From a virus: 64,000 nt of DNA. Positions 4,934-41,467 of the stretch are shown here, in pieces. The notes beneath the pieces were generated by a model. The model saw nothing but the letters and a program-made list of their open reading frames with translations, was not told the DNA's origin and did not search any database. The number at the start of each line of letters is the position of its first letter. The first letter of the stretch is position 1. The position numbers and the translations under genes were made by a program. The stretch covers positions 128,001 through 192,000 of IMG/VR virus record IMGVR_UViG_3300012642_000011; one strand, given 5' to 3'.

Positions 4934-7648
4934 GTGTCAAGGAACCTCAAAGCCAAGAAATTTCCTCCTAAAATTAGTCGTTCTTTTCAATCGGCTCTGA
5001 AGTATGCACAAGCAAACAAAGATGTTGAGAAAGCAGTAGAGAAAGCAACCTGCAACCTTCTTGAAGAGGGATTGACAGTATATGCGGGCAACGTTGCTCA
5101 TACTCACTACCCTCACAAGACAGACGGTGTTGTCACTGTCTCCAATGGACTCTTTGGCGACATGAGTATTCTGGTGGAAGCAAAGAGGGATTCAGGAGAC
5201 CTTTCTCAGCCCAAGTCCCGCGCTGTTGTAATCGCCCAGTCTGTCTTCTACCTCAAGAGGTTCAAGGATGCAGGAGACCTGATACCGTCTGTTCTGGTCT
5301 TTGCTGACATGGATCAGGTCTTTGCTCTCCCCACCTCTTTGGTCATCAACTACCTTGACGGAGTATGGGGTGAGGTCAGTGAGGGATGGAATTGGTCTCT
5401 GTCCCCTTCTGGGGTCTCCAAGCACTCTGTGAGTCTCGTGGAGGCACTATCTACAGACTCCAACCTCAGACCCTTCGTGCGTCCCGTTGATGACTCCTTT
5501 GACGCTGAGGCTTTCATCTCCTCTGTCTATGATATGGCAAGCACAGGAGAACCCATCAAGATCCCTGTGACAGCATTGACATTGGAGAGGCTGTTCTTGA
5601 AGTTCAATCAAAACGTCTTCGGTGGCATCCTCAACGCCAAGACGCAAGGGGACACAGTATCCAATCAAGATCAGATCTCCATCTTCATCGCTTCCCTGAA
5701 GGGTTCTGACTCCACTTACCTTCACCCTAAGCAGCCCAATGTGCTGGTGCATGGAAAGAAGAGTGTGCGCTTGAATTCAGATGCTTATGAAGCCTTCTGG
5801 AATCACTATGACTCAGCATCTTATACTCTGGATGAACTCAAGGCTATCACTGAAATCGCTGACACTCTCATCAACGATGTTGACAGAAGATTCCATGGTG
5901 ACTTTTGGACTCCTGTGATCTGGGTGAATAAGGCTCATGAGATGATCACTGAATCTCTTGGTGAGGATTGGAAGGATAATTATACTGTCTGGGACCCGGC
6001 TTGTGGCTCCAAGAACTTGACTCGTGACTACTATTTCAACAACCTCTACCTCTCCACTTTGCATGAAGAAGAGTTGGAGATCTCCTCTGACTACAACCCT
6101 GAAGCCTCAGGAGAGCATACCTTCGCCTATGATTTTCTCAATGATGATGTTGATGTCATGCATGGTGAGAATGCTTACACAAGAGATCAAATGGAGGCCA
6201 TGAGTGATGAAGAATTGAGCAGGACATTCAAGATGCCTGTGTCTTTGATTCGTGATTTGTTGGCAAAGAAGCCTTTTGTGTTCATTGGCAATCCGCCGTA
6301 TGGATCGGATGGAAATATGCAATCAGTTAACGAGTCAAAAAAATCAATTGCTGATACAAAGATTAGATCACTCATGCTGAAAAATAAAAAGGGTGGTCAT
6401 GCTGCGAGGGAACTTTATACTCAATTTATCTATAGGGTTAAAATAATATCTGATAAATTCAATTACAGCCATGAAGATGAGTTCCACTTCTTCTTCTTCA
6501 ATAAGGGCTTCTTGACATCTCCTAACTTTAGCGAATTTGTTTTTGACTTAACAGCAAAGTTTCACTTTAATAGAGGTTTTATGATCAATGCTGGTGAATT
6601 TAATGGTACATCTTCCTCATGGGGAATTATTTTCTCTCATTGGTCACTATTGGGTTTGAAAAATCAAAATGTTTTTAATTTTAATGTTCTTGAAAATAAA
6701 AAAGGAATTATAAAAGATATAGGGCATTGGTCAGGAGAAATTACTGGCAAATATAATACTATATCTTCATGGCTTTCCGAGGTGGAAATTCCCAAAAATA
6801 AAACTTATGAAAATGTACCTTTGACTAAAAATGGACTAGAAAAGAATACTTCAGCAAATCTTTATTCTAAAATGTCAAATGATTGGATTGGGTATATTGC
6901 TAATCATGCAAACAACGTCCATAAATCAGATAAGTATGTAGGAATGTATTCTATGGGTGCAGGGTCTCAAGTGGGATGGTGTATCACCCCTAACAACCTT
7001 ACCCGCGCCGCAATGACCTTCTCCATCCGCCGTTCAGTCCAAGAAGATATTGCTGAACACAAACTCCTCTGGGTGCGTGATAAAGACATCTTCACTGCCC
7101 CTTCTGAGGAACTTTCTGAAGACAAAGTATTCACTGCTGACTGCATGGTGTATTCACTCTTTGATCGCCAATCCAATCAGACTTCATTGCGCAACTTTGA
7201 ATACAATGGCAATAGTTATCGTATCATCAATGAATTCTTTCCGTTCTCAAGAGACTTCATTAAAGACTTGGCTGTTCAGCACAGGAATCTGAAGGTTCAG
7301 CAAGATGTCAGTGTAGAGACCAAAGAGCGCATTGTCTACAATTGGCTGCAGGAGAACGAAGAATACTTGAGTGATGAAGCAAGGGATCTCTTGAGAATCG
7401 TGAAGAACATCTATGAAGTCTCCTTTGCTTCCCGTGCTGACTATGATCACATGCACCCACGCTACCAAGTGCAATCATGGGATGCAGGATGGATGCAAAT
7501 CAACAGAATGGTCTTTGGCAACGATAGAATCAGTGATGAGTATCTTCACCTCAAGCCTGATTTCATTGCTGCCAGAAAAGTCTTGGGCAAAAAGATTGCT
7601 CAAGCCGCCTATGATGACGGCATCATAGCGGGGATTGAAAAAACTTAG
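4934..7648 (+). CDS. MmeI-like Type IIL/IIG restriction-modification fusion (N-terminal PD-ExK nuclease + gamma-class N6-adenine methyltransferase + TRD)
   Basis: 904-aa ORF, GTG start; nuclease motif GDMSILVEAKRD (D...ExK); MTase motif X GDFWTP, motif I VWDPACGSKNL, motif IV FIGNPPYG; only TAG stop codon in the window. Confidence 0.85.
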   Translation: MSRNLKAKKFPPKISRSFQSALKYAQANKDVEKAVEKATCNLLEEGLTVYAGNVAHTHYPHKTDGVVTVSNGLFGDMSILVEAKRDSGDLSQPKSRAVVIAQSVFYLKRFKDAGDLIPSVLVFADMDQVFALPTSLVINYLDGVWGEVSEGWNWSLSPSGVSKHSVSLVEALSTDSNLRPFVRPVDDSFDAEAFISSVYDMASTGEPIKIPVTALTLERLFLKFNQNVFGGILNAKTQGDTVSNQDQISIFIASLKGSDSTYLHPKQPNVLVHGKKSVRLNSDAYEAFWNHYDSASYTLDELKAITEIADTLINDVDRRFHGDFWTPVIWVNKAHEMITESLGEDWKDNYTVWDPACGSKNLTRDYYFNNLYLSTLHEEELEISSDYNPEASGEHTFAYDFLNDDVDVMHGENAYTRDQMEAMSDEELSRTFKMPVSLIRDLLAKKPFVFIGNPPYGSDGNMQSVNESKKSIADTKIRSLMLKNKKGGHAARELYTQFIYRVKIISDKFNYSHEDEFHFFFFNKGFLTSPNFSEFVFDLTAKFHFNRGFMINAGEFNGTSSSWGIIFSHWSLLGLKNQNVFNFNVLENKKGIIKDIGHWSGEITGKYNTISSWLSEVEIPKNKTYENVPLTKNGLEKNTSANLYSKMSNDWIGYIANHANNVHKSDKYVGMYSMGAGSQVGWCITPNNLTRAAMTFSIRRSVQEDIAEHKLLWVRDKDIFTAPSEELSEDKVFTADCMVYSLFDRQSNQTSLRNFEYNGNSYRIINEFFPFSRDFIKDLAVQHRNLKVQQDVSVETKERIVYNWLQENEEYLSDEARDLLRIVKNIYEVSFASRADYDHMHPRYQVQSWDAGWMQINRMVFGNDRISDEYLHLKPDFIAARKVLGKKIAQAAYDDGIIAGIEKT

Positions 7649-7658: not shown

Positions 7659-8024
7659 ATGACCTATAGTTCAAGCGGAAAAATTTTACTTAATGTGAAT
7701 ACTATATCTGAAAGAGAAATTGAAGATCTTTTTTCTAATGGTGTATCAGAAAGAAGTTGTATAATAATTAGAATCAACAGAGCAAATATTATTATCGATA
7801 AAGTTCATGATAAGTTCAAGCAAGTAGCCTTATCTTTAAGCAAATCAGTTCAAGACAAAGACAAAGAAATTATTATAGATAATTCAAATCTTATGAGTGA
7901 ATTCACGGTTTTTGGTGGAGACGTAATAAGAGACACTGTTTCTTCTGAAGATAGATATCTTTTAGACTACATCAGAGAACAAGGATTTAAAAATTCCAGA
8001 ATTAAAGATATGGATGCAAGATAA
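7659..8024 (+). CDS. hypothetical protein, very AT-rich (122 aa)
   Basis: in-frame ATG of track ORF 7635..8024 preceded by aggag at 7647; composition matches the AT-rich segment inside the upstream RM gene. Confidence 0.5.
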   Translation: MTYSSSGKILLNVNTISEREIEDLFSNGVSERSCIIIRINRANIIIDKVHDKFKQVALSLSKSVQDKDKEIIIDNSNLMSEFTVFGGDVIRDTVSSEDRYLLDYIREQGFKNSRIKDMDAR

Positions 8025-8036
8025 TTATTGAGTCTC

Positions 8037-8108
8037 TAACCGGATTTGAATCGGCGACCTTTCCACTATGAGCGGAACACGTTCTAGCCAACTGAGTTAT
8101 GGAGGCAT
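8037..8108 (-). pseudogene. degenerate tRNA remnant (anticodon-arm CAU) on minus strand
   Basis: minus-strand sequence gcctccataactcagttggctagaacg...ttccg-ctCATag-tggaa...gccgattcaaatccgg: recognisable D-loop, anticodon arm and T-loop, but the D-stem has two mismatches and no 3' acceptor partner for gcctcca. Confidence 0.4.
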
Positions 8109-8109
8109 C

Positions 8110-8160
8110 GCCCACCTGTGATCAAGTGGCACCACTTGATCACAGGTGGGCGCTTTCTTG
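8110..8160 (+). terminator. rho-independent terminator
   Basis: 19-bp perfect hairpin cccacctgtgatcaagtgg-cac-cacttgatcacaggtggg followed by gctttcttg. Confidence 0.6.
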
Positions 8161-8591
8161 TCAAATTCTACCACTTATTAGATGAGATCAAAGATCTTCA
8201 TGAGTAAGATCAATATAATCGAGGTAATCAACTAAATAAAAAGGATGATTGGTCAGCATTGCGCCTTATCGGGAAGATTACTCCCTGCGCACGTGGGTGA
8301 GACTATCAAATAAAAATAGAATACCCACTTGTTAACAATGCGATTATCCTCAACAAATGAGTATTTGTTCTCACCCCACCCTCACCACTATCGTCAGGTG
8401 GGGGTTGTGCTGTCTCCACCCCCTCAACATTGTCGCCACATCAGCAATACAATACTATATAAGGAGTTGCCATATCAGGTATCCCTTGATATACTGATCA
8501 AGCAACTGAAGGATCTACAAACCCCTTAGTCATTATCGATTGACAAGAGGACATTGAAGATAATAGGTGAGAAGAAACCATAGGAGTTTTC

Positions 8592-8849
8592 ATGTTAGGA
8601 TTCAACATCACAGTTTCAGGGGATAGTGGCTCTGTCACCAGAAGTTCATCAGCACAGTGCAAGATTCCGTCATCATGGGTTACACCTGATCCCAGTGTTG
8701 TCACTGTCATCTCCAATGGTGGCTACCCCACCCAATTCAGAGATGTTTTCAGTGATACAAAGGAAGATCTGACTACTGTCTTCAAATCAGAACGTCTTCC
8801 TTTTGAGGAATCAGAAGTTGTCACTGTCACCCTGTGGGATCAATCCTGA
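8592..8849 (+). CDS. hypothetical protein (85 aa)
   Basis: track ORF; RBS aggag 7 nt upstream of ATG. Confidence 0.45.
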   Translation: MLGFNITVSGDSGSVTRSSSAQCKIPSSWVTPDPSVVTVISNGGYPTQFRDVFSDTKEDLTTVFKSERLPFEESEVVTVTLWDQS

Positions 8850-8937
8850 CTATGCTCTGATCTCTCCTCTCGTTTTAGATTTACTCCGACAGAATCTGAA
8901 TTTTTCTGATAATTAGCTAGAGCGAGAAGGAGAGACC

Positions 8938-9432
8938 ATGAAGATCACCAAGGACACATACCGCTACATCGAAGACCTAATCGCCGCTGAAGACATCGAG
9001 TGGGCATGGAAGAGCACACTGAAGACCCATGCCCACCATCAGGGGTTCATCAACATCACAGAATCTGCAGAGTTCAGTGAAGCCACTGTCTTCAATGAGG
9101 ACACCCTTGATGACCTTGGCTACAACGGTGTCGGTGTCCTCTATCAGTATGCCCTTTCCATCTCCAGCAATGCATCCAAGAAGGAGACAGGGGCCTTCTA
9201 CACCCCTGAGGACATCGCTGACATCATGGCAGCACGGGCTTCCAGTGGAATCCATGAGCAGGGAAGATGGACTTCACCTTTGTTGAGGTGGAATTCCTCA
9301 GAGCGTTCAGAACTTCTTGAACACATTGACACCACCCTCAGCATTGCTACCATGACATCAACAACCCAATGTCGCTTGAGACCAAGACCACATTGGAATT
9401 GGATCAAGTTGACTTGCAAGATGTCAACATGA
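8938..9432 (+). pseudogene. N-terminal fragment of a gamma-class N6-adenine DNA methyltransferase
   Basis: 164-aa ORF with RBS aaggagagaccATG; contains MTase motif X (GAFYTPEDIADIM), but no motif I (DPAxGSG) or motif IV (NPPY) follows in any frame. Confidence 0.45.
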
Positions 9433-9476
9433 TATGCTATGATAGACAAGCAACAACAGAATAGAGAACTTCATAT

Positions 9477-9567
9477 GGATGGTTGTCCGAGCGGCCGAAG
9501 GATCTGGTCTTGAAAACCAGTGTGCAGTAACCCTGCACCGTGGGTTCAAATCCCACACCATCCGCCA
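9477..9567 (+). tRNA. tRNA-Ser (anticodon UGA), type II, CCA encoded (second copy)
   Basis: acceptor ggatggt/accatcc; anticodon stem ctggt/accag loop ctTGAaa; variable arm differs from the 3752 copy; T-arm gtggg-ttcaaat-cccac; gcca 3' end. Confidence 0.85.
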
Positions 9568-9743
9568 GAGTGTTCATGTTTGATATACTCTAAAGAAGGC
9601 ACACGAAACGCTCTGTATCAAAAGATATAGTCGCCGTGGTGAGAAAAGTAGCGCTGCTAATCTCACTTCTATGAATTTATCCATAGAATGCAATTGTCCG
9701 TAAAAAGGCAATTTGATAGGTGTAAGATTTTACACCTATCCTC

Positions 9744-9815
9744 GCCTCTTTAGCTCAGCGGCAGAGCACCTGTCTTGTAAACAGGGGGTCGGGGTCTCGG
9801 AATCCCCAAGAGGCT
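9744..9815 (+). tRNA. tRNA-Thr (anticodon UGU)
   Basis: acceptor gcctctt/aagaggc; D-arm gctcagcggcagagc; anticodon stem cctgt/acagg loop ctTGTaa; T-arm gggg-tctcggaa-cccc (atypical loop). Confidence 0.75.
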
Positions 9816-9836
9816 CAACAACAATTTAATACACAC

Positions 9837-9908
9837 GCTTCTGTAGGTTAACGGTAAACCAGATGACTCTAAATCATTGACATGCGGGTTCGACTCCCGT
9901 CAGAAGCA
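9837..9908 (+). tRNA. suppressor-type tRNA (anticodon CUA, reads UAG)
   Basis: acceptor gcttctg/cagaagc; D-stem ggtt/aacc; anticodon stem gatga/tcatt loop ctCTAaa (U33, A37); T-arm gcggg-ttcgact-cccgt; no alternative register gives a 5-bp stem. Confidence 0.7.
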
Positions 9909-10010
9909 CGAAGATAAAGTAAATCTCTTAAGTTGAGTTTACTCTTTCTTCTGTCTACTTGACAACACAAGAAGTATAGTGTACAATAGAAGACAACAAC
10001 AACAAAATAT

Positions 10011-10098
10011 GGAGATGTGGCTGAGCGGCCTAAAGCGGCACCCTGCTAAGGTGTTAGTCGGTAATCCCGGCTCGCAGGTTCAAATCCTGTCATCTCCG
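10011..10098 (+). tRNA. tRNA-Ser (anticodon GCU), type II
   Basis: acceptor ggagatg/catctcc; anticodon stem gcacc/ggtgt (G:U) loop ctGCTaa; long variable arm; T-arm gcagg-ttcaaat-cctgt. Confidence 0.8.
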
Positions 10099-10139
10099 CG
10101 ATCATTGAAAGCACTGCTGGCAATGAGACAATTGAATAT

Positions 10140-10215
10140 AGGGGTGTAGCTCAGTTGGTCAGAGCGGTGGTCTCCAAAACCTCGTCAGTCGCAGGTTCGA
10201 ATCCTGTCACCCCTG
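10140..10215 (+). tRNA. tRNA-Trp (anticodon CCA)
   Basis: acceptor aggggtg/cacccct; D-arm gctcagttggtcagagc; anticodon stem gtggt/acctc (one U:U) loop ctCCAaa; T-arm gcagg-ttcgaat-cctgt. Confidence 0.65.
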
Positions 10216-10231
10216 CTTATAACTTAATCAA

Positions 10232-10305
10232 GGCCCATTGGAGAAACTGGTTATCTCGCCACCCTCTCAAGGTGGAGGCTACGGGTTCGAGTCCCGTATG
10301 GGTCA
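10232..10305 (+). tRNA. tRNA-Glu (anticodon CUC), second copy
   Basis: acceptor ggcccat/atgggtc; anticodon stem ccacc/ggtgg loop ctCTCaa; T-arm acggg-ttcgagt-cccgt; similar D-region to the copy at 26-99. Confidence 0.75.
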
Positions 10306-10689
10306 CAGGAGAGGCAGCGGTAATGATTCCGAGCGCATCAACATGATGAACAATCAAGCGGATGCGAAAAGGAATTATATCTCGTAGTCAAGACTCCACT
10401 AACCCCCGAAACGCTTTGGCGGGTAATTCAAAGCGACATGGGTATAAATTGTTGAATCCATGGACTAGCGGGCAATTCAACGTTGGCTTCCATAAGAAGT
10501 TTTGTCTGCATTACTGCCACCATGTTGGTATGTCATTGGGGGCACCTGACTTATGGCGAAAGGTGCCCGACAACTCAATATGTGATGTAAAGAGTGTTGA
10601 CAAGCATATGAAGATATACGATCATTACATTATATAAGGAATCAAGAGGATTGAAAGATTTCAATCTGATAGCATTCTTCACATAATTA

Positions 10690-10767
10690 TGGTGACTATA
10701 GCTCAATTGGTTAGAGCGCCGGTTTGTGGTACCGGAGGTTGCGAGTTCGAGGCTCGTTAGTCACCCC
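10690..10767 (+). tRNA. tRNA-His (anticodon GUG), G-1 and CCA encoded
   Basis: G(-1)+gtgacta/tagtcac+C73+cca; anticodon stem ccggt/accgg loop ttGTGgt; strongly resembles enterobacterial tRNA-His in overall sequence. Confidence 0.85.
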
Positions 10768-10770
10768 AAC

Positions 10771-10812
10771 TAAAGAGATCAGGGATGTAATCCATCCCTG
10801 ATCTCTTTTCTT
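10771..10812 (+). terminator. rho-independent terminator after tRNA-His
   Basis: hairpin aaagagatcagggatg-taat-ccatccctgatctcttt followed by tcttgttt. Confidence 0.6.
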
Positions 10813-10949
10813 GTTTAGGCAATTTTATGTCAGCAAGAATCATGTTGACATTGCCTTCTTTCTCTCTGTCAGAGAGCAATATGCTATAATCACGAAGAGT
10901 GTAACACAACGGAGAATCATGGTTAGCAAGAAACGAAAGGTAACCCCTC

Positions 10950-11360
10950 ATGAGTGAAGTAGAACTCCATATAGGAAAACTTACTTTGTATCACGATGCA
11001 ATGGCATCATCCAAGACAATGGACGATGCTATCAAGGAGATCCTTGGAGAAACAGTGCATTCTGAAGATTATAATTCATGGTTAGAACGTTTCTACGAAG
11101 TAGAATATAATAAGCCCAACAGGGAGTATATCGTTGATGAGGCCAGAAGCCGAATCTATAAGACAGAAAATAAAGAAGTCTTCCTGCCAGTCAATAAGAG
11201 TTATAATATGAGCAGCAATGCAGATGGAACTATTGACTACGTTGCTTACTTCTACAACGGGGTAACTCATCTTGATGCGGAATTGCAGAACGGATTAAAA
11301 GAGATCAACGATCAAGAAATAAAAACATCTTTTGAAAAAGGAGAATTGTATTCAATATGA
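10950..11360 (+). CDS. hypothetical protein, paralog A of a tandem pair
   Basis: 136-aa track ORF; shares TxDDAIxEiLG and NADGTxxxxxxFYxG motifs with the next ORF; stop overlaps next start (ATGA). Confidence 0.6.
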   Translation: MSEVELHIGKLTLYHDAMASSKTMDDAIKEILGETVHSEDYNSWLERFYEVEYNKPNREYIVDEARSRIYKTENKEVFLPVNKSYNMSSNADGTIDYVAYFYNGVTHLDAELQNGLKEINDQEIKTSFEKGELYSI

Positions 11361-12347: not shown

Positions 12348-13838
12348 ATGAATTTCTTAGAAGCACATCCAGAAGTTTCATCATCATGGTCTGAAAATAA
12401 TGCATTCTCTCCTGACTCAATCTCCAAAGCATCAAGGAAAAAAGTCATCATCATCTGTGATAAACATGGTGACTATGAAATCAGGGCAGATTCTTACCAC
12501 AATGGCAACAGATGCAAACAATGTGCAGCAGAAGTCAAAGCACAGAGCAAGATCACGAAAGCAATTGCTCAACATGGAAGCGGTCTAGAAAAGTACCCCT
12601 CGCTAAAAAAGTATGCAGTAAGAGATTTCCACGCTAAAGATGATCACAAGATACCATTCCGCTGTCCCGATTGCGCACACGAATGGACGCTATCGCCCTA
12701 TAGTCAAATGATTATCAACGGCTGCCCACAATGTGACCCACAGGCAAAGATAAGAATGAAGAATCACATTCCTACTATGAAGTCTTTGACACATGGAAAC
12801 ATAGCAGACCAGAAACCAGAGATAGTTGCACAATGGTCGCCAAAAAATGATCTAACAACAGAACAAGTCAGTTGCGGTTCTGGTTATCGCGCTACATGGA
12901 TATGTGAGATCAATCCGAACCATGAATGGGAATCCTTTGTTTACCAGAGAGCAGGAAAGAAGGAAACAGGATGCCCACAATGCAATATATCTGGAATAGA
13001 ATCAGAAATTGGTCAACTCCTATCCGATCACCATGTTGACTTCATTCGTTCCAATCGAAAAATTATTGCACCCTATGAACTGGACATATACATTCCAGAG
13101 AAAAATGTAGCCATAGAAGCCAATGGTGTCTATTGGCATACAGAAAAACAAGGAAAAGATAGGAACTATCACTACAACAAGTGGAAACAATGCCATGATC
13201 AAGGAATCCAACTGATCACCATCTGGGAAGATGACTGGATGATGAAAAAAGAACTCATTAAAAAGATGATTCTTCACAAGATTGGACTATCCCATCAGAA
13301 AAGTATCTACGCACGTACATGTTCAGTCAAAGATGTTCCCACTATAGAATCCAATAGATTCTTGAATACTTACCATATTCAAGGAGAAGCAAGAGGAAGT
13401 GTGAAGATTGGACTTCACCATGAAGGAGAACTGGTTGCTATCTCCGTATGGAAGAAACTTAAAGAAGATGAATGGGAATTATCTCGCTATGCAACAAGCA
13501 TGAACGTTGTTGGTGGAGCAAGCAAAGTCATCAAAGCATTCATTCGTCAACACTCGCCAAGCAAGATTGTCACATTCGCTGACCATGAAGTATCTGATGG
13601 TGGACTATATGAAAAATTAGGGTTCACTGCCGACAAGGAGATCAAGCCTGATTACAAGTATGTTATAGACAACAAAAGAATACACAAGTTTAATTATAGA
13701 TTGAAGAGGTTCAAGAGCGATCCCACACTCATCTACGAAGAAGGATTGAGTGAATCACAGTTGGCTCAACTGAATAACATTGATAGAGCATGGGATTGCG
13801 GTAAAACACGATATATTCTGCAGTTACCCTTGATTTGA
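12348..13838 (+). CDS. putative freestanding homing endonuclease: N-terminal zinc-ribbon repeats + C-terminal DUF559/Vsr-like PD-(D/E)xK nuclease (paralog 1)
   Basis: 496-aa ORF, RBS aagga; repeated xxCxxC...HEW...GCPQC units; nuclease core ELDIYIPEKNVAIEANGVYWH; conserved tail RAWDCGKTRY shared with 15917 and 20738 ORFs. Confidence 0.75.
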   Translation: MNFLEAHPEVSSSWSENNAFSPDSISKASRKKVIIICDKHGDYEIRADSYHNGNRCKQCAAEVKAQSKITKAIAQHGSGLEKYPSLKKYAVRDFHAKDDHKIPFRCPDCAHEWTLSPYSQMIINGCPQCDPQAKIRMKNHIPTMKSLTHGNIADQKPEIVAQWSPKNDLTTEQVSCGSGYRATWICEINPNHEWESFVYQRAGKKETGCPQCNISGIESEIGQLLSDHHVDFIRSNRKIIAPYELDIYIPEKNVAIEANGVYWHTEKQGKDRNYHYNKWKQCHDQGIQLITIWEDDWMMKKELIKKMILHKIGLSHQKSIYARTCSVKDVPTIESNRFLNTYHIQGEARGSVKIGLHHEGELVAISVWKKLKEDEWELSRYATSMNVVGGASKVIKAFIRQHSPSKIVTFADHEVSDGGLYEKLGFTADKEIKPDYKYVIDNKRIHKFNYRLKRFKSDPTLIYEEGLSESQLAQLNNIDRAWDCGKTRYILQLPLI

Positions 13839-15782: not shown

Positions 15783-15916
15783 CAGTGTATGAAATAGACC
15801 AGTAAATTACTGGTCTATTTTTGTTTTTGATGGTCGTTTTTATCTTACTTCTCACCATACTTGTATACTTCTCCCAAATGGTGTGCTCTAAGCATAGATC
15901 TTGTTATCATATATGT

Positions 15917-17665
15917 ATGAAGCCCCAACTGTATGAGTATTTTTTAGATCATCCCGAAATGAAAGCAATGTGGTCACGTCGCAATAGTGACGAACTGTTG
16001 TCTAAAACGGCTGGAAGCAATGTGAAGGCACTATGGTCTTGCTCTACTTGTGGGCAAGAATCATTAATCCCTATTTACCGCAAGGTCAACAATCCTCTTA
16101 CATGTTCTACATGCAATGGGAGCAAGGTGGTTCAAGGGGTGAATGATTTGGAAACAATGTATCCCGAAATAGCGTCTGAATGGTCGTCGAGGAATGAGAA
16201 GAAACCTTCAGAAGTAAAATATAGTTCTGCAATCACTGCTGAATGGGATTGTAAAAATGGGCACTCTTTTACTATGTATCTTCCTGAAAGGACGAGATCG
16301 ACCAGGAAATCTCGGGGGTGCCCTGAGTGTAGAAGACAAGAAATCCAGGAAGACAAAGAGAATAACCCTAATAAGCGCTCTATTGCATCGGGAAATGGAT
16401 CAGCGGAGATGCAGCAGATGTTTGTGGAATCATTAGGAAAGATCAAATTTCCAGGAGCGAGGTCAGGCACACTTTGCTTATGGAGATGCTCGAAGGGGCA
16501 TGAATGGAGGCAAGTTCCTAAGAGATTTAATGGATGTGAAATCTGCGATCCGCCCCAGTATATTCTACCGCAGTCCAGGAACAAAAACATTTTAAAGGTA
16601 TCCAATTCGATCCTCCACACTCATCCTCATGCTATAGAATTATGGAATGATTCAAGAAGTCCAGAATCAGTAACTAAAGGATCATCCTATCGCGCTCAAT
16701 GGAAGTGTGCTAAAAACCATCAATGGGAACAATCTGTCTACACAGTGCTCCGGTCCCTCGACAAAGGTCACAAAGCATGCCCTCATTGCTCTTCCATGAT
16801 TTCTGCTGCTGAAAAGAAAATCTCTGAGATTGTAAAGGAGGCAATGAATCCATTGGGTTTAACTGTCCTCACTTCCCATCGTAAATTGATTCCTCCCTAT
16901 GAAGTAGACATTTATGTTCCTGAGAAGAAGATTGCTATTGAATACAATGGTCTCTACTGGCATAGTGATGCTAATCGAAAGGGTAAAGACAGGAATTATC
17001 ACTACAACAAGTGGAAGAAATGCAAAGATCAAGGTGTCCAATTGATCACCGTGTGGGAGGATGATTGGCGTGACCATGAGGACATTGTGACATCAATGTT
17101 GTTGACCAAGTTGGGTGTTTCTGATGCTCAGAAAGTCAATGCTCGTGATTGTGTGATCGTAGAATCTTCTTATACCGATTCTTCTGCATTTCTTGATGCT
17201 CACCATATTCAAGGTTCAGCAAGAGGGAGTTTCTATCTTTCCTTATTGCATGATGGTGTCATGGTGGCAACTTCGGTGTGGGTGAAGAGGGGGTCAGACC
17301 TTGTTCTTGAGCGCTACGCAACCTCTGTGAGCGTTCGTGGTGGCATGGGTAAACTGTTGAAGGCTGGGTGCATAGAAGGCCGTCAGAGGGGCGCACAGCG
17401 CGTTGTGACTTTTGCTGATCATGGTGTTTCTGATGGTGGATTGTATGAGCGCCTTGGTTTCGTTGCTGACAAGGTGTTGAAGCCTGATTATGCGTATGTT
17501 GTAGATGGTGATAGGAAGCATAAGTTCAATTACAGGTTGAAGAGGTTCAAGAATGATCCAGTATTGAGATATGTGGACGGTTTATCTGAATCCCAGTTGG
17601 CTGAGTTGAATGAGATTCCTCGTGTATGGGATTGTGGGAAGACGCGGTATGTGATGGGTCTTTGA
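15917..17665 (+). CDS. putative homing endonuclease: zinc-ribbon repeats (DUF4379-like) + DUF559/Vsr-like nuclease (paralog 2)
   Basis: track ORF 15821..17665 starts over the preceding tRNA; first ATG at 15917 (MKPQLYEYF); repeats GVNDLETMYPEIASEWSSRN...GCPEC; nuclease EVDIYVPEKKIAIEYNGLYWH; tail RVWDCGKTRY. Confidence 0.75.
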   Translation: MKPQLYEYFLDHPEMKAMWSRRNSDELLSKTAGSNVKALWSCSTCGQESLIPIYRKVNNPLTCSTCNGSKVVQGVNDLETMYPEIASEWSSRNEKKPSEVKYSSAITAEWDCKNGHSFTMYLPERTRSTRKSRGCPECRRQEIQEDKENNPNKRSIASGNGSAEMQQMFVESLGKIKFPGARSGTLCLWRCSKGHEWRQVPKRFNGCEICDPPQYILPQSRNKNILKVSNSILHTHPHAIELWNDSRSPESVTKGSSYRAQWKCAKNHQWEQSVYTVLRSLDKGHKACPHCSSMISAAEKKISEIVKEAMNPLGLTVLTSHRKLIPPYEVDIYVPEKKIAIEYNGLYWHSDANRKGKDRNYHYNKWKKCKDQGVQLITVWEDDWRDHEDIVTSMLLTKLGVSDAQKVNARDCVIVESSYTDSSAFLDAHHIQGSARGSFYLSLLHDGVMVATSVWVKRGSDLVLERYATSVSVRGGMGKLLKAGCIEGRQRGAQRVVTFADHGVSDGGLYERLGFVADKVLKPDYAYVVDGDRKHKFNYRLKRFKNDPVLRYVDGLSESQLAELNEIPRVWDCGKTRYVMGL

Positions 17666-20737: not shown

Positions 20738-22675
20738 ATGAAACTCTGTGATAAGTATCCCCAGCTTAAAAATAAGTATTCACAACTTAATAATACTATT
20801 TTTGAGGAAAAAGAGTATCGATACGATGAGTATCTTTTTTGGGATTGTCCTCAAGGGCATCATATTTATAAGCCTGCTAGAGAAATCAATAGATATCAAA
20901 ATTGCAATTCCTGTGAAAACATCAAAAAGACTGGGATTGAGTTCTTTGAAAGCTTGGAATACCTCTATCCCTCTATCGTAGAAAAATATAGTGTCAAAAA
21001 TATTCTTTCTGCAAACAGTGTTCGACCAGACTCACTTTTTAATGCAATCTGGGAAGATCGAGATGAGAAAATAAAAATATACGATAGGGTTCTGGAAGAA
21101 ATATCTTCAGGAAATGTGAAAAGAAATCATGTAACGAAGAGAAACGTAAAAAATAGAAAAAAGAAAGACAATGTTTCTGCGGAAAGTATATCCAAGCCGC
21201 AAGAAAAAGAGGATTCACCTCTTTTAAAAGATGCCTACCCAGACCTTTATGAAATGCGATTAAACGATTGTGAAGATCTTAATATTTGGTCTAATAAAAA
21301 ACTTTTGTGGAAGTGCGACAAAGGGCATGAGTTCACTTCAAGTATACGAAACCTCATTAAAAGATCAACTAAGTGCAATGTCTGTAGTGGAGTTGCCTTG
21401 CAAAAGGGAGTCAATGATATTTCGACCCTGGCTCCTGACCTTGCCTCATGCATTGTATCTCCTGACCCTTCAGAAATTACATTAGCATATAATAAACCTA
21501 TCACTTTTAAATGTTTCACTTGCATGCATCAGTGGGTTTCAAATTTGGATAAAAGAAAAGACAGATCTTTAAGATGTCCTGGATGCAGCGGAAAAACTGT
21601 AATTCATGGATTCAATGACATTGAAACTATTATGCCGCACATCAAAAATTCATGGGCAAAGAATAATAAATACATGCCTTCTGAAATGACAACAAAAAGC
21701 GAAAAAGAAGTATACCTTTATTGTTCGAATGGAATATCGCATGATCTGGTTAAGACTTATGCATATGTAATTTCTCGAACACCTAATAGGAGAACTTATT
21801 TATGTAATCACTGTTCTGGATCTGCTGGTGAAATCGATATGGCAAATTTCATTGCTTCGCTCGGATTTACCACAATCAGAAAAGACAGGAAAATTATAAG
21901 GCCAAAAGAACTGGATGTATATCTTCCTGATCTCAAGGTGGCTTTTGAATACAATGGTCTCTATTGGCATTCAGATAAGGCAGGCAAATCCGACACCTAC
22001 CATTACGACAAGTGGAAGCGCTGTGCTGACAAGGGTATCCAGTTGATCTCTATCTGGGAGGATGATTGGAACTATCGTGAGGACATTGTCAAGAGGATGA
22101 TTGCTCACAAGTTGGGCGTCAGCAATGATCGCAAAGTCTACGCTCGGCAAACCGATGTCGTCATTGTAGACAAGGATGATGCCCGAGCGTTCTGCAATGC
22201 CCACCACATTCAAGGCTATGTATCTGGTAGCGTCTACTATGGTCTCAAAGATCGCAGGACGGATTCTTTGGTGGCTGTGAGCGTCTGGAAGCGTTCAGGT
22301 GACCAATTGCGCCTTGAGAGGTATTGCACGTCTGAGAACGTGATTGGTGGCATGGGAAAGATGTTGAAAGCGGGAGTCCAGTATGCCAAGGACAATGGGT
22401 TGAGCAAGATCGTCACTTTCTCTGATCATGATGTCTCTGATGGTGGACTGTATCGAAGACTTGGATTCATTCCTGACAAGGAGTTGAAGCCTGATTACAA
22501 GTATATCGTCGGCGGTACCAGGGTTCATAAATTCAACTATCGCATCAAGAGGTTCAGGGATGATCCGAACTTGAAGTATGCTGATGGTCTCACTGAATCC
22601 GAGTTGGCGCAGTTGAACAGTCTTCCTCGTGTTTACGATGCCGGCAAGACGCGTTGGGCGATCAATGTATCCTAA
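20738..22675 (+). CDS. putative homing endonuclease: zinc-ribbon repeats + DUF559/Vsr-like nuclease (paralog 3)
   Basis: 645-aa ORF; repeats LQKGVNDISTLAPDLAS..., HGFNDIETIMPHIKNSWAKNN...; nuclease ELDVYLPDLKVAFEYNGLYWH; tail RVYDAGKTRW. Confidence 0.75.
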   Translation: MKLCDKYPQLKNKYSQLNNTIFEEKEYRYDEYLFWDCPQGHHIYKPAREINRYQNCNSCENIKKTGIEFFESLEYLYPSIVEKYSVKNILSANSVRPDSLFNAIWEDRDEKIKIYDRVLEEISSGNVKRNHVTKRNVKNRKKKDNVSAESISKPQEKEDSPLLKDAYPDLYEMRLNDCEDLNIWSNKKLLWKCDKGHEFTSSIRNLIKRSTKCNVCSGVALQKGVNDISTLAPDLASCIVSPDPSEITLAYNKPITFKCFTCMHQWVSNLDKRKDRSLRCPGCSGKTVIHGFNDIETIMPHIKNSWAKNNKYMPSEMTTKSEKEVYLYCSNGISHDLVKTYAYVISRTPNRRTYLCNHCSGSAGEIDMANFIASLGFTTIRKDRKIIRPKELDVYLPDLKVAFEYNGLYWHSDKAGKSDTYHYDKWKRCADKGIQLISIWEDDWNYREDIVKRMIAHKLGVSNDRKVYARQTDVVIVDKDDARAFCNAHHIQGYVSGSVYYGLKDRRTDSLVAVSVWKRSGDQLRLERYCTSENVIGGMGKMLKAGVQYAKDNGLSKIVTFSDHDVSDGGLYRRLGFIPDKELKPDYKYIVGGTRVHKFNYRIKRFRDDPNLKYADGLTESELAQLNSLPRVYDAGKTRWAINVS

Positions 22676-28641: not shown

Positions 28642-30567
28642 ATGAAAAACATAAAACTCAAAAAGATATCTGCTGCTGTAGTAATCTCATTTGCATCAGC
28701 AGGATTTTTGACTACTGCCAACGCCCCTGGCGCTTTCGCTCTTCCTGATTCTCAAGACAATGTTAATTCCAGCAATATCGTTGATACTGGTGGTCACGTT
28801 GATGTCACAGGAATCAACGCTACAGTTAACGACAATGATACTGTAACATATAAGTATCAAGTTTCTGTTCTTCCTATGATGTCTTCAGATCATGGTCAGA
28901 CTTCATCTGTTTTCAAGATGAGTGTCCCCCAATTTGTAGAGCAAGATCAGGTGAAGTTCACTCTGGTCGGAACATATGACTCTTCTGTTCACATTGACAA
29001 TGTAGATGGAATTAGTGTGCCTGCTACGGAAATCACAAGAGTCAACAGACCTCTTGATGTCTTCAGCGATCGTAATCTACTTTCCTACTATGATGATAAA
29101 ACTGGTAGTAGTAAAGCTAGTCATCAAATCCCCACTACTGATCAAATTCAACTTGAACTCGATAGTGGTTTAACGTCCATGCCGAATGCTGTCTTCTACA
29201 CACCTGCTGGCATTTTATATGAATCTTCAGAGGGACCAACTGAACCAACAGATAGCATGAACCGTTACTATATAGCAAGCAGCTTCGTTAAGCCAGTTGT
29301 CATGGAAGTAGAGATTACTGTTCCTCTAGATGCCGCTCAAACATATAAGACCGTCCCACTTCGAGTAGAGAATTTTACTAGGGCTTTTGAAACAGGCAGC
29401 GCAGAGACTGCCGAAGGAGCACAAAGATTCGATATCGCTCCATATCGATTCTGGGATGACTCAATTAAACAACTGGTCGAAGATTTCCCTGACCAATATG
29501 CAAATCTCCCCTATGTTGATGACTGGATGAGTCCTTTAACCCATCCTGAATTGATTGATGCTGCTTCTGTTCTTCCATCAGGGCTGATGGGAGTCTCTAC
29601 GTGTACTCCTACTAAACCATCTGCGTTCGGTACTATCGGCTATGACATTGCTGCCAGTGCATTCAGCTATGTTAATACCTTCGCCCTTGAAACACATCCA
29701 TATGCTAGTTTTTTGACCACTAAGAATGAAGACATGTGTGATCAGGATGCTATCATAAGCACCCAACTGTTCACTCCTGAAGCCACTGATGATTCATCAA
29801 CTGCTCCACAGGGTCAGTCTGTTGATATAGATGTTCTTAGCAATGACACTCCATCAAATGTAGACCTTGATCCTACTACTCTCAAATTGGTAGATGCAAA
29901 TGATGACCCTGTAGATACCTTGGTTGTTGATGGAGAAGGAACATGGACAGTCGTAGATGGTCGTTTGAATTTTACTCCACTCGCTGATTTCACAGGAGAA
30001 ACTACACCTGTTTCATACATTGTGAAAGATATGAACGGAAATTCAACTACTGCTAACGTTATGGTTACTGTAACTCCTGCGGTAACACCAGAGCCAACTC
30101 CAACACCAGAACCTACAAATCCTGTAGTAACACCAGAGCCAACTCCAACACCAGAACCAACAAATCCTGTAGTAACACCAGAACCAACACCCACACCAGA
30201 ACCAACAGACCCTGTAGTAACACCAGAACCAACACCAACACCAGAACCAACAAATCCTGTAGTAACACCAGAACCAACACCCACACCAGAACCAACAAAT
30301 CCTGTAGTAACACCAGAACCAACACCCACACCAGAACCAACAGACCCTGTAGTAACACCTACCACATCGGTAGTGGTATCAGATCCTACTACAGAGCCTG
30401 TGAAAACAGAAACTCCTCAGTCTGACAGCGTTCTGATTAAGACCGGAGAATCTGTAAAGAACGATAATCAGAATCTTCTTATGGCTGGTGTTCTTTCAGG
30501 TCTGGGAGTTTTGGGATTTATTGGATCTACTCTCGGAATCAGTCGTTTCAGGAAGAATAAGGCATGA
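28642..30567 (+). CDS. secreted cell-wall-anchored surface protein (signal peptide, PT-rich tandem repeats, LPxTG-like LIKTG sorting signal)
   Basis: 641-aa ORF; N-term [33 protein letters not shown]; seven ([15 protein letters not shown]) repeats; C-term LIKTGE + hydrophobic 24 aa + RFRKNKA. Confidence 0.75.
30079..30360 (+). repeat. 45-bp tandem repeat x about 6.5 (encodes the PT linker)
   Basis: unit acaccagaaccaacacc(c/a)acaccagaaccaaca(a/g)a(t/c)cctgtagta repeated head-to-tail; the minus-strand GVG-repeat ORFs in the track are its artefact. Confidence 0.8.
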
Positions 30568-32174: not shown

Positions 32175-32801
32175 ATGATACAAGAGGGAGTTGAAATGAT
32201 GAGTCAGAGAATGCGTATTGGTGAAGCGTGTGAGTACTTGGGTATTCACCAGCAAACTATGAGAAAATATGTAAAACAGGGAAAAATTCCCTGCTCCTAC
32301 AATGACGCAGGACAAAGAATCTTCCTTCTTGAAGACCTCAAAAAATTCATTGGCGAACCCGTATCGCAAGAAAAATACTCCCCAATCTTCTATGTTCGAT
32401 CATCAGACGGAGACAAAAAACTCATCCAAAAACAGATCGAACTTCTCACCGAAAAATATGGTGAGCACCCCGTCATCAAAGACACGGGATCAGGACTCAA
32501 CGAAAAAAGACAAGGACTACAAAGACTCATAAAACTCGCCAAGAAAAGAGAAATATCCCACATCTACATCACCCACCAAGACCGACTCACCCGATTCGGA
32601 TTCACCTACCTACAAGAACTCTTCACAGCATACGGAGTAGAAATCCACACTCTCAACCCAAAGAAAAACAACACACCACACGAAGAACTCATGCAAGACT
32701 TCATGAGCCTCATCGCAAGTTTCAGCGGACGCTTCTACAGAATGAGAAGCAAAGAAAACCAAAGAAAACTCCTTGAAAAAGCAGCAAAAGAGGTCGCATG
32801 A
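32175..32801 (+). CDS. tnpA: IS607-type transposase TnpA (MerR-like HTH + serine recombinase catalytic domain)
   Basis: 208 aa; HTH MRIGEACEYLGIHQQTMRKYVKQGKIP; catalytic IFYVRSSDGD and THQDRLTRFG. Confidence 0.8.
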   Translation: MIQEGVEMMSQRMRIGEACEYLGIHQQTMRKYVKQGKIPCSYNDAGQRIFLLEDLKKFIGEPVSQEKYSPIFYVRSSDGDKKLIQKQIELLTEKYGEHPVIKDTGSGLNEKRQGLQRLIKLAKKREISHIYITHQDRLTRFGFTYLQELFTAYGVEIHTLNPKKNNTPHEELMQDFMSLIASFSGRFYRMRSKENQRKLLEKAAKEVA

Positions 32802-34372
32802 AAAACAGCATCTATCGTGGACTCACCCTACCCCTCCAAGAATACTACCGAATTATAAGAGGGAAGAAAAACTCGGAGTACTCACCTGTCAACAATCAAG
32901 AAGTCATGGACAAGATCGGTAAAACCATAACGATTGTAAAAGACTGCGTAAAATGGGGGATCAACACCCCACAAAATGCAGAATACTACAAAGCCATCAA
33001 CAGCGGAGCACACCCAGAAACCGGCGAACAATTACCCACTAACCTCAATGAGCAAGCCCGCATTCTCAATCATAAGTACCAAGAATACTTACCGGAAGAA
33101 ATGAAAGGGAAATCCATTGTTGAACGTATGATCGGTCACAATCTTCTCGAACTTGAAAGCGCCTTTGGGAAGAAACTCAAAGCAATACATGGAGAAGAAT
33201 ACATTTCTCAAGGATGGGCGCGAACCATCAATAGCGTACTCCCACAACCCAGCGCAAAAATTAACATTGGTAGCACGAACAATGTCTACTCTTCCCAAAA
33301 AGTCGAGGAAAATAAAATTATTCTCGACATGATCTGCTACGATAACTGGTATCGACTTATTTTTACAATTCCTGAGAATTATCAAAAGACCGACTACAGT
33401 AAGATCTCAAAACCGTTGATTACGCTGAACGATCAAGGCGAGATGAAGTTCTATTTCAGTTTTGAATATGATCGTTATTATCCTGAAATCAGCGATCAGT
33501 ATGTTATTGGTGTTGATGTGGGCGTTGTAAAACCAATTGTTCTTAGCGTTATTGAGATCAAAACTGGAAGAATCGTTGCTTCTCATGAATCAACGCCACT
33601 GATTGATTCTCTGGTTCACGATATCAAGCAGACTCAGGAGCAGATCACGAACCTCTACAAAAAGGTTGAGAAATATATTAAAAATGGCGATTACCCTGCT
33701 TATGATAGAGCAATGACCGAAATCCAGCAGGAGCGTTTGGGATTGTCTCGTAAGAGGAAGGAGATGGCGAAGCGTATTGGTCAGTTTGTATCGGATATTG
33801 CTTGTGCTTGGGGCGATCCTGTGATTGCTGTTGAGGATCTTGGTTGGGTTCGCAATACGATGCAGAATGGTCGTTGGAATCGTGGTGAGATTGTGAATTG
33901 GGTGGAGCATTATGCGAATCTTGACGGGAGACTGTGTTATCGTGTGAATGCTGCTCATACTTCATCCACGTGTTGTCTTTGTGGTAGTAAGGGTTATTTT
34001 TCATCTGGTCGGGTTTTCAATTGTTCTTCTTGCGGTGAGAGAATCGATAGAGATGAAAATGCTGCGGCAAATATTGGCAAAAGAGTGATCAATAGCGCCC
34101 TGAAATCAAGCAAAACGAGAAAGAAAAGAAGGAAAGAAAAATGCATTACTGAACAATCTAAGCGTAGGTCACCAGTGAATAGGGGCGCTAAGAATCGCCC
34201 CACTCCTGTTCGTCCTGCTAAGAAGAAAAAGAAAACAGTTCTGAAAAGACAAGAAAAAGTAAAAGATTTTGGTTCCTGTACTAAGGGTAGTATGGGGTTC
34301 GAGAGAGCAGATTCTTCAAAGAACACCCTCACGGGTAACCACAACAATCTTACCATTACTCAAAAAGAGTAA
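32798..34372 (+). CDS. tnpB: TnpB (OrfB, RuvC-like nuclease with C-terminal zinc finger)
   Basis: 524 aa; C-terminus CCLCGSKGYFSSGRVFNCSSCGERIDRDENAAANIG is the TnpB/Cas12-like zinc finger + RuvC-III motif. Confidence 0.85.
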   Translation: MKNSIYRGLTLPLQEYYRIIRGKKNSEYSPVNNQEVMDKIGKTITIVKDCVKWGINTPQNAEYYKAINSGAHPETGEQLPTNLNEQARILNHKYQEYLPEEMKGKSIVERMIGHNLLELESAFGKKLKAIHGEEYISQGWARTINSVLPQPSAKINIGSTNNVYSSQKVEENKIILDMICYDNWYRLIFTIPENYQKTDYSKISKPLITLNDQGEMKFYFSFEYDRYYPEISDQYVIGVDVGVVKPIVLSVIEIKTGRIVASHESTPLIDSLVHDIKQTQEQITNLYKKVEKYIKNGDYPAYDRAMTEIQQERLGLSRKRKEMAKRIGQFVSDIACAWGDPVIAVEDLGWVRNTMQNGRWNRGEIVNWVEHYANLDGRLCYRVNAAHTSSTCCLCGSKGYFSSGRVFNCSSCGERIDRDENAAANIGKRVINSALKSSKTRKKRRKEKCITEQSKRRSPVNRGAKNRPTPVRPAKKKKKTVLKRQEKVKDFGSCTKGSMGFERADSSKNTLTGNHNNLTITQKE

Positions 34373-34821: not shown

Positions 34822-34896
34822 TAGGGTATGGAATTAATGGTATTTCGTCGTACTCAAGGTTATTACGAAGATACGGGTTCGATTCCCGTTACTCTA
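34822..34896 (+). tRNA. tRNA-like gene with 11-nt anticodon loop (non-canonical)
   Basis: acceptor tagggta/tactcta (7/7 with one G:U), D-stem gaat/attt, T-arm acggg-ttcgatt-cccgt, 75 nt; the only stem in the anticodon region is tcgta/tacga enclosing ctcaaggttat (11 nt). Confidence 0.4.
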
Positions 34897-35031
34897 TCTC
34901 GTCCCGATGCCTCTGGTCTCTTTGGAGATTATGCACACTTCGTGGTCACTGGTGGCACTTGATCAATGCTGTCAAACCTGATCTATGAGTAGTCATAGGT
35001 TGGACTTCAACTTGTTCATTAGAAGGTATTC

Positions 35032-35137: not shown

Positions 35138-35220
35138 GTGCGCTTGCTGAGTAGATGGTTCTGCTGGCGGTCTGCAAAACCGTTGCGAAAGCCGAAGGGG
35201 TTCGATTCTCCCAAGCGCGT
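35138..35220 (+). tRNA. tRNA-Sec-like / allo-tRNA-type fold carrying a Cys GCA anticodon
   Basis: 9-bp acceptor gtgcgcttg/caagcgcgt (two G:U); 6-bp D-stem agtaga/tctgct with 4-nt loop tggt; 6-bp anticodon stem ggcggt/accgtt loop ctGCAaa; 12-nt V-arm gcgaaagccgaa; 4-bp T-stem gggg/ctcc with ttcgatt. Confidence 0.55.
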
Positions 35221-35266
35221 CGAGATTGTAGTACATTGAGTGGTCTTGATGTACTACAATTATAAT

Positions 35267-35340
35267 GGCACTGTGGCTGAATGGTTTTAGGCAACAGATT
35301 GCAAACCTGTTTTATGTGGGTTCAAATCCCATCGGTGCCT
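35267..35340 (+). tRNA. tRNA-Cys (anticodon GCA), canonical 7/5 fold
   Basis: acceptor ggcactg/cggtgcc (one U:G); anticodon stem acaga/cctgt (A31 opposite C39) with enterobacterial-type loop ttGCAaa; T-arm gtggg-ttcaaat-cccat; preceded by 12-bp inverted repeat attgtagtacat/atgtactacaat. Confidence 0.75.
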
Positions 35341-35372
35341 CAAGAATAGAAAAGCGAACAAAGGTGATTACA

Positions 35373-41236: not shown

Positions 41237-41467
41237 TAGTTAGTACTCCTGTGTATAAGATTATGATCACATTGCGTGATAACTCTTTAATTTATATCAA
41301 ACAATTTCTAATAATAATATCAAAGAAAGGTTATTTATTTACGATAAACTAACAGGGTGATAGTGCTTTTCTTCTTAAAAACACTATCACCCTGTTAAGT
41401 GTGCGTAAGATCTAAATCCTTTGATCTTCCGACTTATATGAATGTATAATTACTCTTCAATGCTATT

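Follow-up and report, generated by a model that had tools for sequence, protein, structure and literature searches.

An amber-suppressor-type tRNA gene and the near absence of TAG stops in a putative huge phage

The CUA tRNA gene and the element that carries it

The window, by which we mean the whole stretch of 64,000 nucleotides analysed here, contains a tRNA gene whose anticodon, CUA, reads the amber codon UAG. The features on which the argument is built are the following:

4934-7648, + strand: gene of a 904-aa protein terminated by TAG, with no family match.
7646-7648, + strand: the sole TAG stop among the ORFs of at least 100 aa, inside a TAGGAG sequence.
9409-9443, + strand: sigma-70-like promoter matches upstream of the Ser-Thr-CUA cluster, found by a consensus scan; putative function.
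9477-9567, + strand: tRNA-Ser(UGA), upstream of the CUA tRNA (ARAGORN, Rfam).
9744-9816, + strand: tRNA-Thr(UGU), directly upstream of the CUA tRNA (ARAGORN, Rfam).
9837-9908, + strand: the CUA tRNA gene, 72 nt to A73, reading UAG (ARAGORN, Rfam RF00005, cloverleaf drawing).
9910-9951, + strand: hairpin just 3' of the CUA tRNA (-12.8 kcal/mol, z = -3.0), U-rich on its 3' side.
9959-9987, + strand: near-consensus promoter match TTGACA-17-TACAAT (consensus scan, 11/12 matches).
45966-47558, + strand: CCA-adding tRNA nucleotidyltransferase (Pfam PolyA_pol, 9.9e-21).
51395-51741, + strand: tmRNA with the tag ANSAKNDFALAA (ARAGORN; Rfam RF00023, 107 bits).

ARAGORN reports a 73-nt tRNA at 9837-9909 with the anticodon cta, and the Rfam tRNA model RF00005, searched with Infernal, matches 9837-9908 over the full length (model positions 1-71; 65.5 bits for a gathering score of 29; E = 5.6e-12 for the window) without flagging any non-canonical pair. 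The two programs independently place CUA at positions 34-36. The first-pass annotation had proposed this interval and this anticodon from a gatga/tcatt stem framing U33 and A37; both finders agree with it, and the covariance model, from which a different call could have come, gives the same CUA. The cloverleaf consists of a 7-bp acceptor stem (GCUUCUG/CAGAAGC) followed by U8-A9, a 4-bp D stem (GGUU/AACC) closing a 7-nt D loop with G18-G19 (the whole D arm being GGUUAACGGUAAACC), a 5-bp anticodon stem (GAUGA/UCAUU) closing the 7-nt loop CUCUAAA (U33, C34-U35-A36, A37), a 5-nt variable loop (GACAU), a 5-bp T stem (GCGGG/CCCGU) with the loop UUCGACU, and the discriminator A73. All the conserved tRNA positions are kept (U8, A14, G18-G19, U33, G53-U54-U55-C56 and A58), the gene ranks 7th in Rfam score among the tRNA matches of the window, and it is identical in a second strain (L017) with different flanks.

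These data bear on two alternative identities. The gene could be a relic or a non-decoding element, serving as an integration target, an anticodon-nuclease decoy or a processing signal, and the fact that sequence comparisons assign it no isotype (see below) is in keeping with such a reading; the presence of the conserved positions, the four intact stems, the Rfam score and the perfect conservation between strains nevertheless make it very unlikely. ARAGORN, for its part, names the gene 'tRNA-Pyl', and this label and the anticodon are all that speaks for a pyrrolysine tRNA. In tRNA-Pyl a single base links the acceptor and D stems, the D loop is small and lacks GG, the anticodon stem measures 6 bp and the variable loop 3 nt, whereas the CUA tRNA folds as a standard cloverleaf with two linker bases (UA), GG in a D loop of 7 nt, 5 bp in the anticodon stem and 5 nt in the variable loop; furthermore, no pyl-type family was met when about 50 window proteins were scanned with Pfam, nor among the Pfam labels given to the flank genes. 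The label is the codon-table name for CUA and is refuted by the structure, so that a pyrrolysine identity is hardly conceivable.

The tRNA-Thr gene is separated from the CUA tRNA by a spacer of 20 nt, and tRNA-Ser, tRNA-Thr and CUA tRNA probably form one transcription unit. The promoter matches in front of it are TTGACT-18-TATGCT and TTGCAA-18-TATGAT, each with a TG, in a region (8000-11000) where the sigma-70 consensus scan returned 13 sites for 5.8 expected. On the 3' side, the hairpin at 9910-9951 is a possible weak terminator or processing site, which the terminator scan did not flag (low G+C), and the near-consensus promoter at 9959-9987 precedes the next tRNA group (Ser-GCU, Trp, Glu) and thereby bounds the unit. 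The CUA tRNA has no encoded CCA, the bases after A73 being CGA, and the same is true of most tRNAs of the array, so that a CCA-adding enzyme is needed; the protein encoded at 45966-47558 is the candidate, which the NCBIfam CCA tRNA nucleotidyltransferase models match below their cut-offs.

The window is 100% identical to part of the 332,269-bp ENA metagenome contig ERZ27289831:k141_11150, where it occupies positions 187744-251743 in reverse orientation, and near-identical strains are found in several ENA and JGI assemblies. It holds 36 tRNAs called by ARAGORN, one tmRNA and one SRP RNA; the array continues upstream, and 90.9 kb of sequence contain 46 tRNA/tmRNA genes, i.e. about 45 tRNAs and the tmRNA. 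Among the genes of the window and its flanks are those of GyrA-like and RadA-like proteins, PIF1 and SNF2 helicases, a dCMP deaminase, NadR and PnuC. The element, of about 332 kb, would be a huge phage or at least phage-like, because the encoded proteins match phage families and core genes of cells, ribosomal or other, are absent; the 90.9 kb include neither a capsid nor a terminase gene. A secreted G5 and transglycosylase-like protein, as well as best matches to Streptomyces phage proteins, would point to a Gram-positive host. No close relative was found among GenBank phages, PLSDB or IMG/VR, two scans of one metagenome collection did not find the element, and the contigs L165 (363 kb) and L177 are distant relatives only. 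Two independent assemblies, of 332 kb and 221 kb, share one end, which lies some 188 kb beyond the downstream side of the window (about +251.7 kb) and is position 1 of ERZ27289831:k141_11150; it may be a physical end of the genome or a terminal repeat.

Several members of the array are unusual. A tRNA-like gene at 34822-34898 has an anticodon loop of 8 nt (ARAGORN 'caag'; Rfam tRNA 44.1 bits) and may be quadruplet-reading or degenerate. The Gln-like tRNA-like gene at 2578-2649, a second stop-related oddity of the array, has a 6-nt anticodon loop, CUUUAG, is labelled 'Lys|Stop, tt' by ARAGORN and receives no Rfam tRNA match at the gathering score; a UUA reading is possible, and the gene is probably a pseudogene. 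An 83-nt tRNA(GCA, Cys) with a long extra arm (35138-35221), matched by the tRNA-Sec model RF01852 with 48.9 bits for a gathering score of 47, is directly followed by a normal tRNA-Cys(GCA) at 35267-35341. Finally, two Leu-anticodon tRNAs (CAG, AAG) of 73-74 nt, with a short variable loop and a 3-bp D stem, lie about 0.8-1.1 kb upstream of the window (16689-16762 and 16935-17007 of the scaffold L021), and the element also possesses normal long-arm tRNA-Leu genes. The small SRP RNA (38297-38383) scores 40.4 bits, just over the gathering score.

Homing-endonuclease-like paralogues, with DUF4379 zinc fingers and a PD-(D/E)XK-like core (PHROG 'homing endonuclease'), lie among the tRNA genes at 12348-13838, 15821-17665 and 20738-22675, and strain L017 carries at 9354-11102 an allele (P0003) that is 75% identical, with flanks about 99% identical in the stretch compared. 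The family counts more than 1,500 members, many of them on contigs of 100-460 kb, and no further paralogue from the element appears among the best 120 of these matches. An IS607-like pair at 32175-34372 associates a serine recombinase with a MerR-type HTH (32175-32801) and an overlapping TnpB (32798-34372); several independent assemblies break at or beside it, which suggests a presence/absence polymorphism. This TnpB is single-copy, and a second TnpB lies about 17.6 kb upstream of it, at the start of L021.

Other genes of the window deserve mention. DnaE is encoded by two ORFs (52910-54397 and 55496-58183) with a clamp-loader-like AAA gene (DNA_pol3_delta2; 54360-55487) between them; the DNA_pol3_alpha Pfam domain, of 260 positions, is broken at about position 98-100, and split-intein halves were rejected as there is no room for them. 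The distant huge-phage contig L165 has a single DnaE with an intein. On the - strand at 43799-45765, NadR (NMN adenylyltransferase/ribosylnicotinamide kinase) overlaps the NMN transporter PnuC, the two forming an NAD salvage pair, and at 40907-42766 four tandem paralogues of 109-120 aa, mutually 76-83% identical and function-unassigned, lie on the strand that hardly any other gene uses. At 30100-30350, within 28642-30567, a unit of 18-27 nt is repeated about nine times in tandem, close to the C-terminus of a protein of 641 aa that has CshA-repeat/Big_9 domains; judged from the nucleotides, the copies likely encode a Pro/Thr-rich repeat.

Stop codon usage and the reading of TAG

Stop codons were counted in a greedy, non-overlapping set of ORFs of at least 100 aa, in a region of 90.9 kb which consists of the window and of flanks taken from the same contig or from near-identical strains, reaches from about -17.8 kb to +73.1 kb and represents 27% of the 332,269-bp contig. 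The window ORFs end with TGA 29 times, with TAA 19 times and with TAG once, in agreement with the single TAG among about 50 stops counted in the first-pass annotation; in the 90.9 kb (76 ORFs, 22,986 codons), the corresponding figures are 51, 24 and 1. TAG-recoded phages are recognized in part by the fact that TAG is not used as a genuine terminator, and here it terminates 1/76 ORFs.

A shortage of this kind might be unrelated to the tRNA: it would be compositional or inherited from the host, the CUA tRNA being of little effect in a partly degenerate collection. The aberrant tRNA-like genes of the array (8-nt and 6-nt anticodon loops, short Leu-anticodon tRNAs), the fact that TAG is, overall, the least frequent stop triplet, and the existence of IMG/VR phage loci with 0 TAG stops in 13-16 ORFs are in keeping with this explanation. 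However, TAG makes up 15.4% of the off-frame stop triplets inside ORFs versus 1.3% of the real stops, and its Markov-1 observed/expected ratio is an unremarkable 0.87 versus 0.85 for TAA; the shortage is thus specific to stop positions. The probability of finding at most one TAG among 76 stops is 4.5e-5 at p = 0.154, and 1.5e-3 at p = 0.11, which is the TAG share in locally standard-code IMG/VR phage loci with CUA tRNAs, among the matches listed. The CUA tRNA is, in addition, among the best-scoring and most canonical tRNAs of the window, and we regard a shortage without relation to it as quite improbable. Two tRNA finders and the stop statistics uphold the central proposal of the first-pass annotation, that of an amber-suppressor-type tRNA in a genome that avoids TAG. 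That the tRNA is a functional suppressor is highly probable, and the combination of a functional amber suppressor with the removal of TAG as a terminator is well supported.

The lone TAG stop has a particular context. The TAGGAG sequence that covers it is the Shine-Dalgarno sequence of the next gene (ATG at 7659), and two further in-frame stops, TAG (7667) and TAA (7691), come after the lone stop, so that read-through at 7646-7648 would add at most 15 residues. The 904-aa protein that it terminates has no match in Pfam, NCBIfam, PHROG or PDB sequences, and the 'MmeI-like' label which it had received earlier is therefore unsupported.

Whether TAG is also read as sense is a separate matter. The first-pass annotation had suggested either a tuning of TAG read-through or a reassignment of TAG in genes elsewhere in the genome, and the latter idea agrees with published cases (10.1101/2021.08.26.457843; PMC7162821); in the 27% of the contig covered, a scan for ORFs that close only with TAG as sense returned none: no gene contains or needs an in-frame TAG, and the long ORFs all close in the standard code. 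When TAG is changed from stop to sense, ORF coverage rises from 0.830 to 0.849 on 75 kb and from 0.843 to 0.867 on L021, these values being obtained by a simple ORF method on part of the genome, as opposed to a Prodigal-type coding density. Borges et al. require a gain in coding density above 5%, for contigs of at least 100 kb, when TAG is not a stop (10.1101/2021.08.26.457843), and the gains of 0.02, measured on part of the genome, fall below this value. The extra length consists of 5' extensions, of overlaps with real genes or tRNA genes, and of one antisense shadow. The latter is the recoded-gene candidate 63182-63850 (- strand), which has three in-frame TAGs and was rejected as the shadow of a CPBP protease gene that runs past the window end; the other long ORFs containing TAG were dismissed as 5' extensions of, or overlaps with, real genes. 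The 90.9 kb have three gaps of at least 350 bp, all explained (an N run in the scaffold, a 381-bp spacer, and an artefact of the greedy selection over the clamp-loader gene), and two seemingly uncalled gaps of L021, considered as possible recoded genes, are N runs in the scaffold. Pfam scans of about 50 window proteins, together with the Pfam labels given to the flank genes, show neither RF2 nor an aminoacyl-tRNA synthetase; such accessory genes of a code change are optional in the literature on TAG-recoded phages.

The bearing of these results depends on the nature of the region. TAG-recoded phages carry in-frame TAG in structural and lysis genes and keep their early genes in the standard code (10.1101/2021.08.26.457843). 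The 90.9 kb contain no structural or lysis module, a secreted peptidoglycan hydrolase gene upstream (P0122) is in the standard code, and the region looks like an early/replication region. Its intactness fits the standard-code early region of a recoded phage and equally a non-recoded genome; as recoded phages keep such regions in the standard code, the absence of in-frame TAG lowers the probability of recoding without removing it.

The second possibility, a functional suppressor without recoded genes, is one to which we give real weight, though well short of an even chance. The element would be at a pre-recoding stage, as proposed for phages in which TAG stops have been lost and a suppressor acquired while in-frame TAG is still absent, or the suppressor would be a tool against the host or competing phages. 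In the host-directed version, the read-through of TAG-terminated host genes would disturb the host proteins, while the element would be spared by avoiding TAG ends and its tmRNA would clear the stalled ribosomes; the rescue by this tmRNA of ribosomes that have read through the TAG of host messages, and hence its link with the suppressor, is speculative. The intactness of 76/76 ORFs in the standard code, the presence of the tmRNA, and the fact that any active suppressor selects against TAG stops, which makes the shortage equally expected, are on the side of this explanation. Against it, the 27% covered is early/replication-like, where recoded phages too avoid in-frame TAG, and we know of no demonstrated benefit of a suppressor devoid of recoded targets. 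A precedent does exist in a standard-code relative of recoded phages that gained a suppressor tRNA (10.1101/2021.08.26.457843).

Known suppressors and the amino acid

CUA tRNAs are very common in phages and have been tied to TAG recoding (10.1101/2021.08.26.457843; PMC7162821; PMC9523058). Like the TAG-recoded phages (Lak megaphages, crAss-like phages and other code 15 clades), the element combines a large genome with a phage-borne CUA tRNA, located in a region readable by the standard code; as in the phages of Borges, Al-Shayeb, Peters et al., TAG has been vacated as a terminator; and its host presumably uses the standard code, since TGA and TAA both serve as stops. It differs from them by the absence of in-frame TAG in the 27% of the genome examined, by a G+C content of 41% instead of about 25-35%, and by the fact that no RF2 gene is seen in the Pfam results for the window and flanks.

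A scan of IMG/VR with GACUCUAAAUC followed by the T arm yielded at least 119 loci and at least 86 distinct CUA tRNAs, and a second scan, with the D arm, gave further ones; among the matches listed for both, the best identity to the CUA tRNA is 74%. Again among the matches listed, many are Gln-like (U1, GGUGUAAUGG D arm), and these Gln-like suppressors reside on low-G+C contigs whose local coverage gains 0.1-0.6 with TAG as sense. The gain exceeds 0.10 at about 33 of the 84 CUA-tRNA loci of this list, about half of which are locally standard-code, some of them using TAG stops freely. A CUA tRNA alone is thus no proof of recoding, and the many locally standard-code loci among these matches also favour a suppressor without recoded genes.

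The anticodon loop CUCUAAA is that of the classical amber suppressors supF/su3, a tRNA-Tyr with CUA, and su7/supU, a tRNA-Trp with CUA that is charged with Gln in E. coli. It is one change away from the Trp (CUCCAAA), Tyr (CUGUAAA) or Lys-CUU (CUCUUAA) loop. Unlike supF and su7, which are mutant alleles, the present tRNA is a dedicated extra gene on a mobile genome. Its variable loop is short, unlike that of bacterial tRNA-Tyr, and it is not a long-arm tRNA, the tRNA-Tyr of the element being 82 nt long. Its 18-nt D arm is found in the GTDB species set in one bona fide tRNA only, the tRNA-Trp of a Bryobacterales MAG (L171), in which it is identical, and a su7-type suppressor would have a tRNA-Trp body with C35 changed to U; bacterial tRNA-Trp (L171, and 10140-10216 in the window) nevertheless has A1-U72, G73 and U31-A39, and differs from the CUA tRNA, with its G1-C72 and A73, by the acceptor pair, the discriminator and the 31-39 pair.

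The closest tRNA among GenBank phages, with 84% identity over 50 nt, is unannotated:

MF403008.1 430713-430787 (L174 1485-1559): tRNA(UCA), reading UGA, of Agrobacterium phage Atu_ph07, a published 490-kb jumbo phage.

It too reads a stop codon in a jumbo phage, and it has in common with the CUA tRNA the four GAUG/CAUU pairs of the anticodon stem, a GA(G/C)AU variable loop, the 5' strand GCGGG of the T stem, G1-C72 and A73. It differs by its UCA anticodon, by another D arm and acceptor stem and by an encoded CCA. The likeness may be generic, as a tRNA-His has the same variable-loop/T-arm motif: a scan of IMG/VR with the scaffold of the CUA tRNA recovered one CUA tRNA, one UCA tRNA and one tRNA-His, the last of which carries this motif.

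The glutamine-type body of many phage suppressors was considered and rejected. The tRNA-Gln genes of the element itself (20151, 20409) have U1-A72, G73 and the D arm GGUGUAAUGG, and the Gln-like IMG/VR suppressors likewise have U1-A72, whereas the CUA tRNA has G1-C72, C2-G71 and A73 and another D arm. No isotype could be assigned: in pairwise comparison with the 44 tRNAs of the element, the best match is a tRNA-His with 65%, and in a nearest-neighbour comparison with 397 phage tRNAs, anticodons masked, it is another suppressor with 71%.

In E. coli amber suppressors, such as su7 and the set of Normanly, Abelson and Miller, GlnRS or LysRS tends to charge a generic short-arm tRNA that carries CUA, because both enzymes read U35; A73 favours Lys and G73 favours Gln. 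In hosts without GlnRS, such as most Gram-positive bacteria, the amidotransferase step requires U1-A72. On the basis of A73, of U35 recognition and of the absence of U1-A72, we rank Lys first, followed by Gln, Trp or Glu, with low confidence. Because the G1-C72/A73 body fits the glutamine route poorly, we also considered a reassignment of UAG in late genes to a residue other than Gln, e.g. Lys, Trp or Glu, which we judge unlikely. In the recoded phages reported so far, TAG stands for Gln (10.1101/2021.08.26.457843) or its amino acid was left unresolved (PMC7162821); a non-Gln reassignment, if true, would thus add a new variant to the phage codes, in a lineage found neither among GenBank phages nor in IMG/VR.

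A model for the CUA tRNA and its implications

The model we propose combines these observations in a single chain of events. The CUA tRNA would be transcribed by the host RNA polymerase together with tRNA-Ser and tRNA-Thr from the sigma-70-type promoters, in a unit bounded by the 9910-9951 hairpin and by the next promoter, and its 3' end would be finished by the CCA-adding enzyme of the element, to judge from the missing CCA and the presence of the enzyme gene. Once charged by a host aminoacyl-tRNA synthetase, it would compete with release factor 1 at UAG, thereby making UAG unreliable as a stop in the infected cell. The genome has adapted to this by the near-complete loss of TAG as a terminator, the lone TAG stop being kept by the Shine-Dalgarno sequence to which it belongs and backed by further stops. 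The standard-code region with the tRNAs and the replication genes would be expressed first, and the purpose of the suppressor would most likely be, by analogy with TAG-recoded phages, the reading of TAG codons that lie in frame in genes beyond the 91 kb, such as late, structural or lysis genes. Strong local recoding at about a third or more of the CUA-tRNA loci listed from IMG/VR favours recoded genes here; the lack of in-frame TAG in the 90.9 kb, of RF2 and of a synthetase in the Pfam results for the window and flanks, the standard-code gene of P0122, the body that is not glutamine-like and the locally standard-code half of those loci speak against them. Taken as a whole, including recoded genes elsewhere in the genome, we hold this model tentatively, at slightly less than an even chance.

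In conclusion, amber suppressors of phages are already a well documented phenomenon, and the only feature that could be new here is the non-glutamine tRNA body, which would add a scaffold of another type to the known phage amber suppressors. For engineered amber suppression, natural CUA tRNAs that fold well and are not Gln-like could serve as starting points. If the element is recoded, standard gene callers would break up its late genes, and a code-aware pipeline would be needed to annotate it. Confirmation of the suppressor would make this uncharacterised 332-kb element, of a lineage missing from the reference collections, a candidate for stop-codon recoding. Which host synthetases charge the phage suppressors, and is TAG always read as Gln? 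This is the question left open by Borges et al. (10.1101/2021.08.26.457843), and the non-glutamine scaffold described here would bear on both of its parts, the charging synthetases and the identity of TAG.
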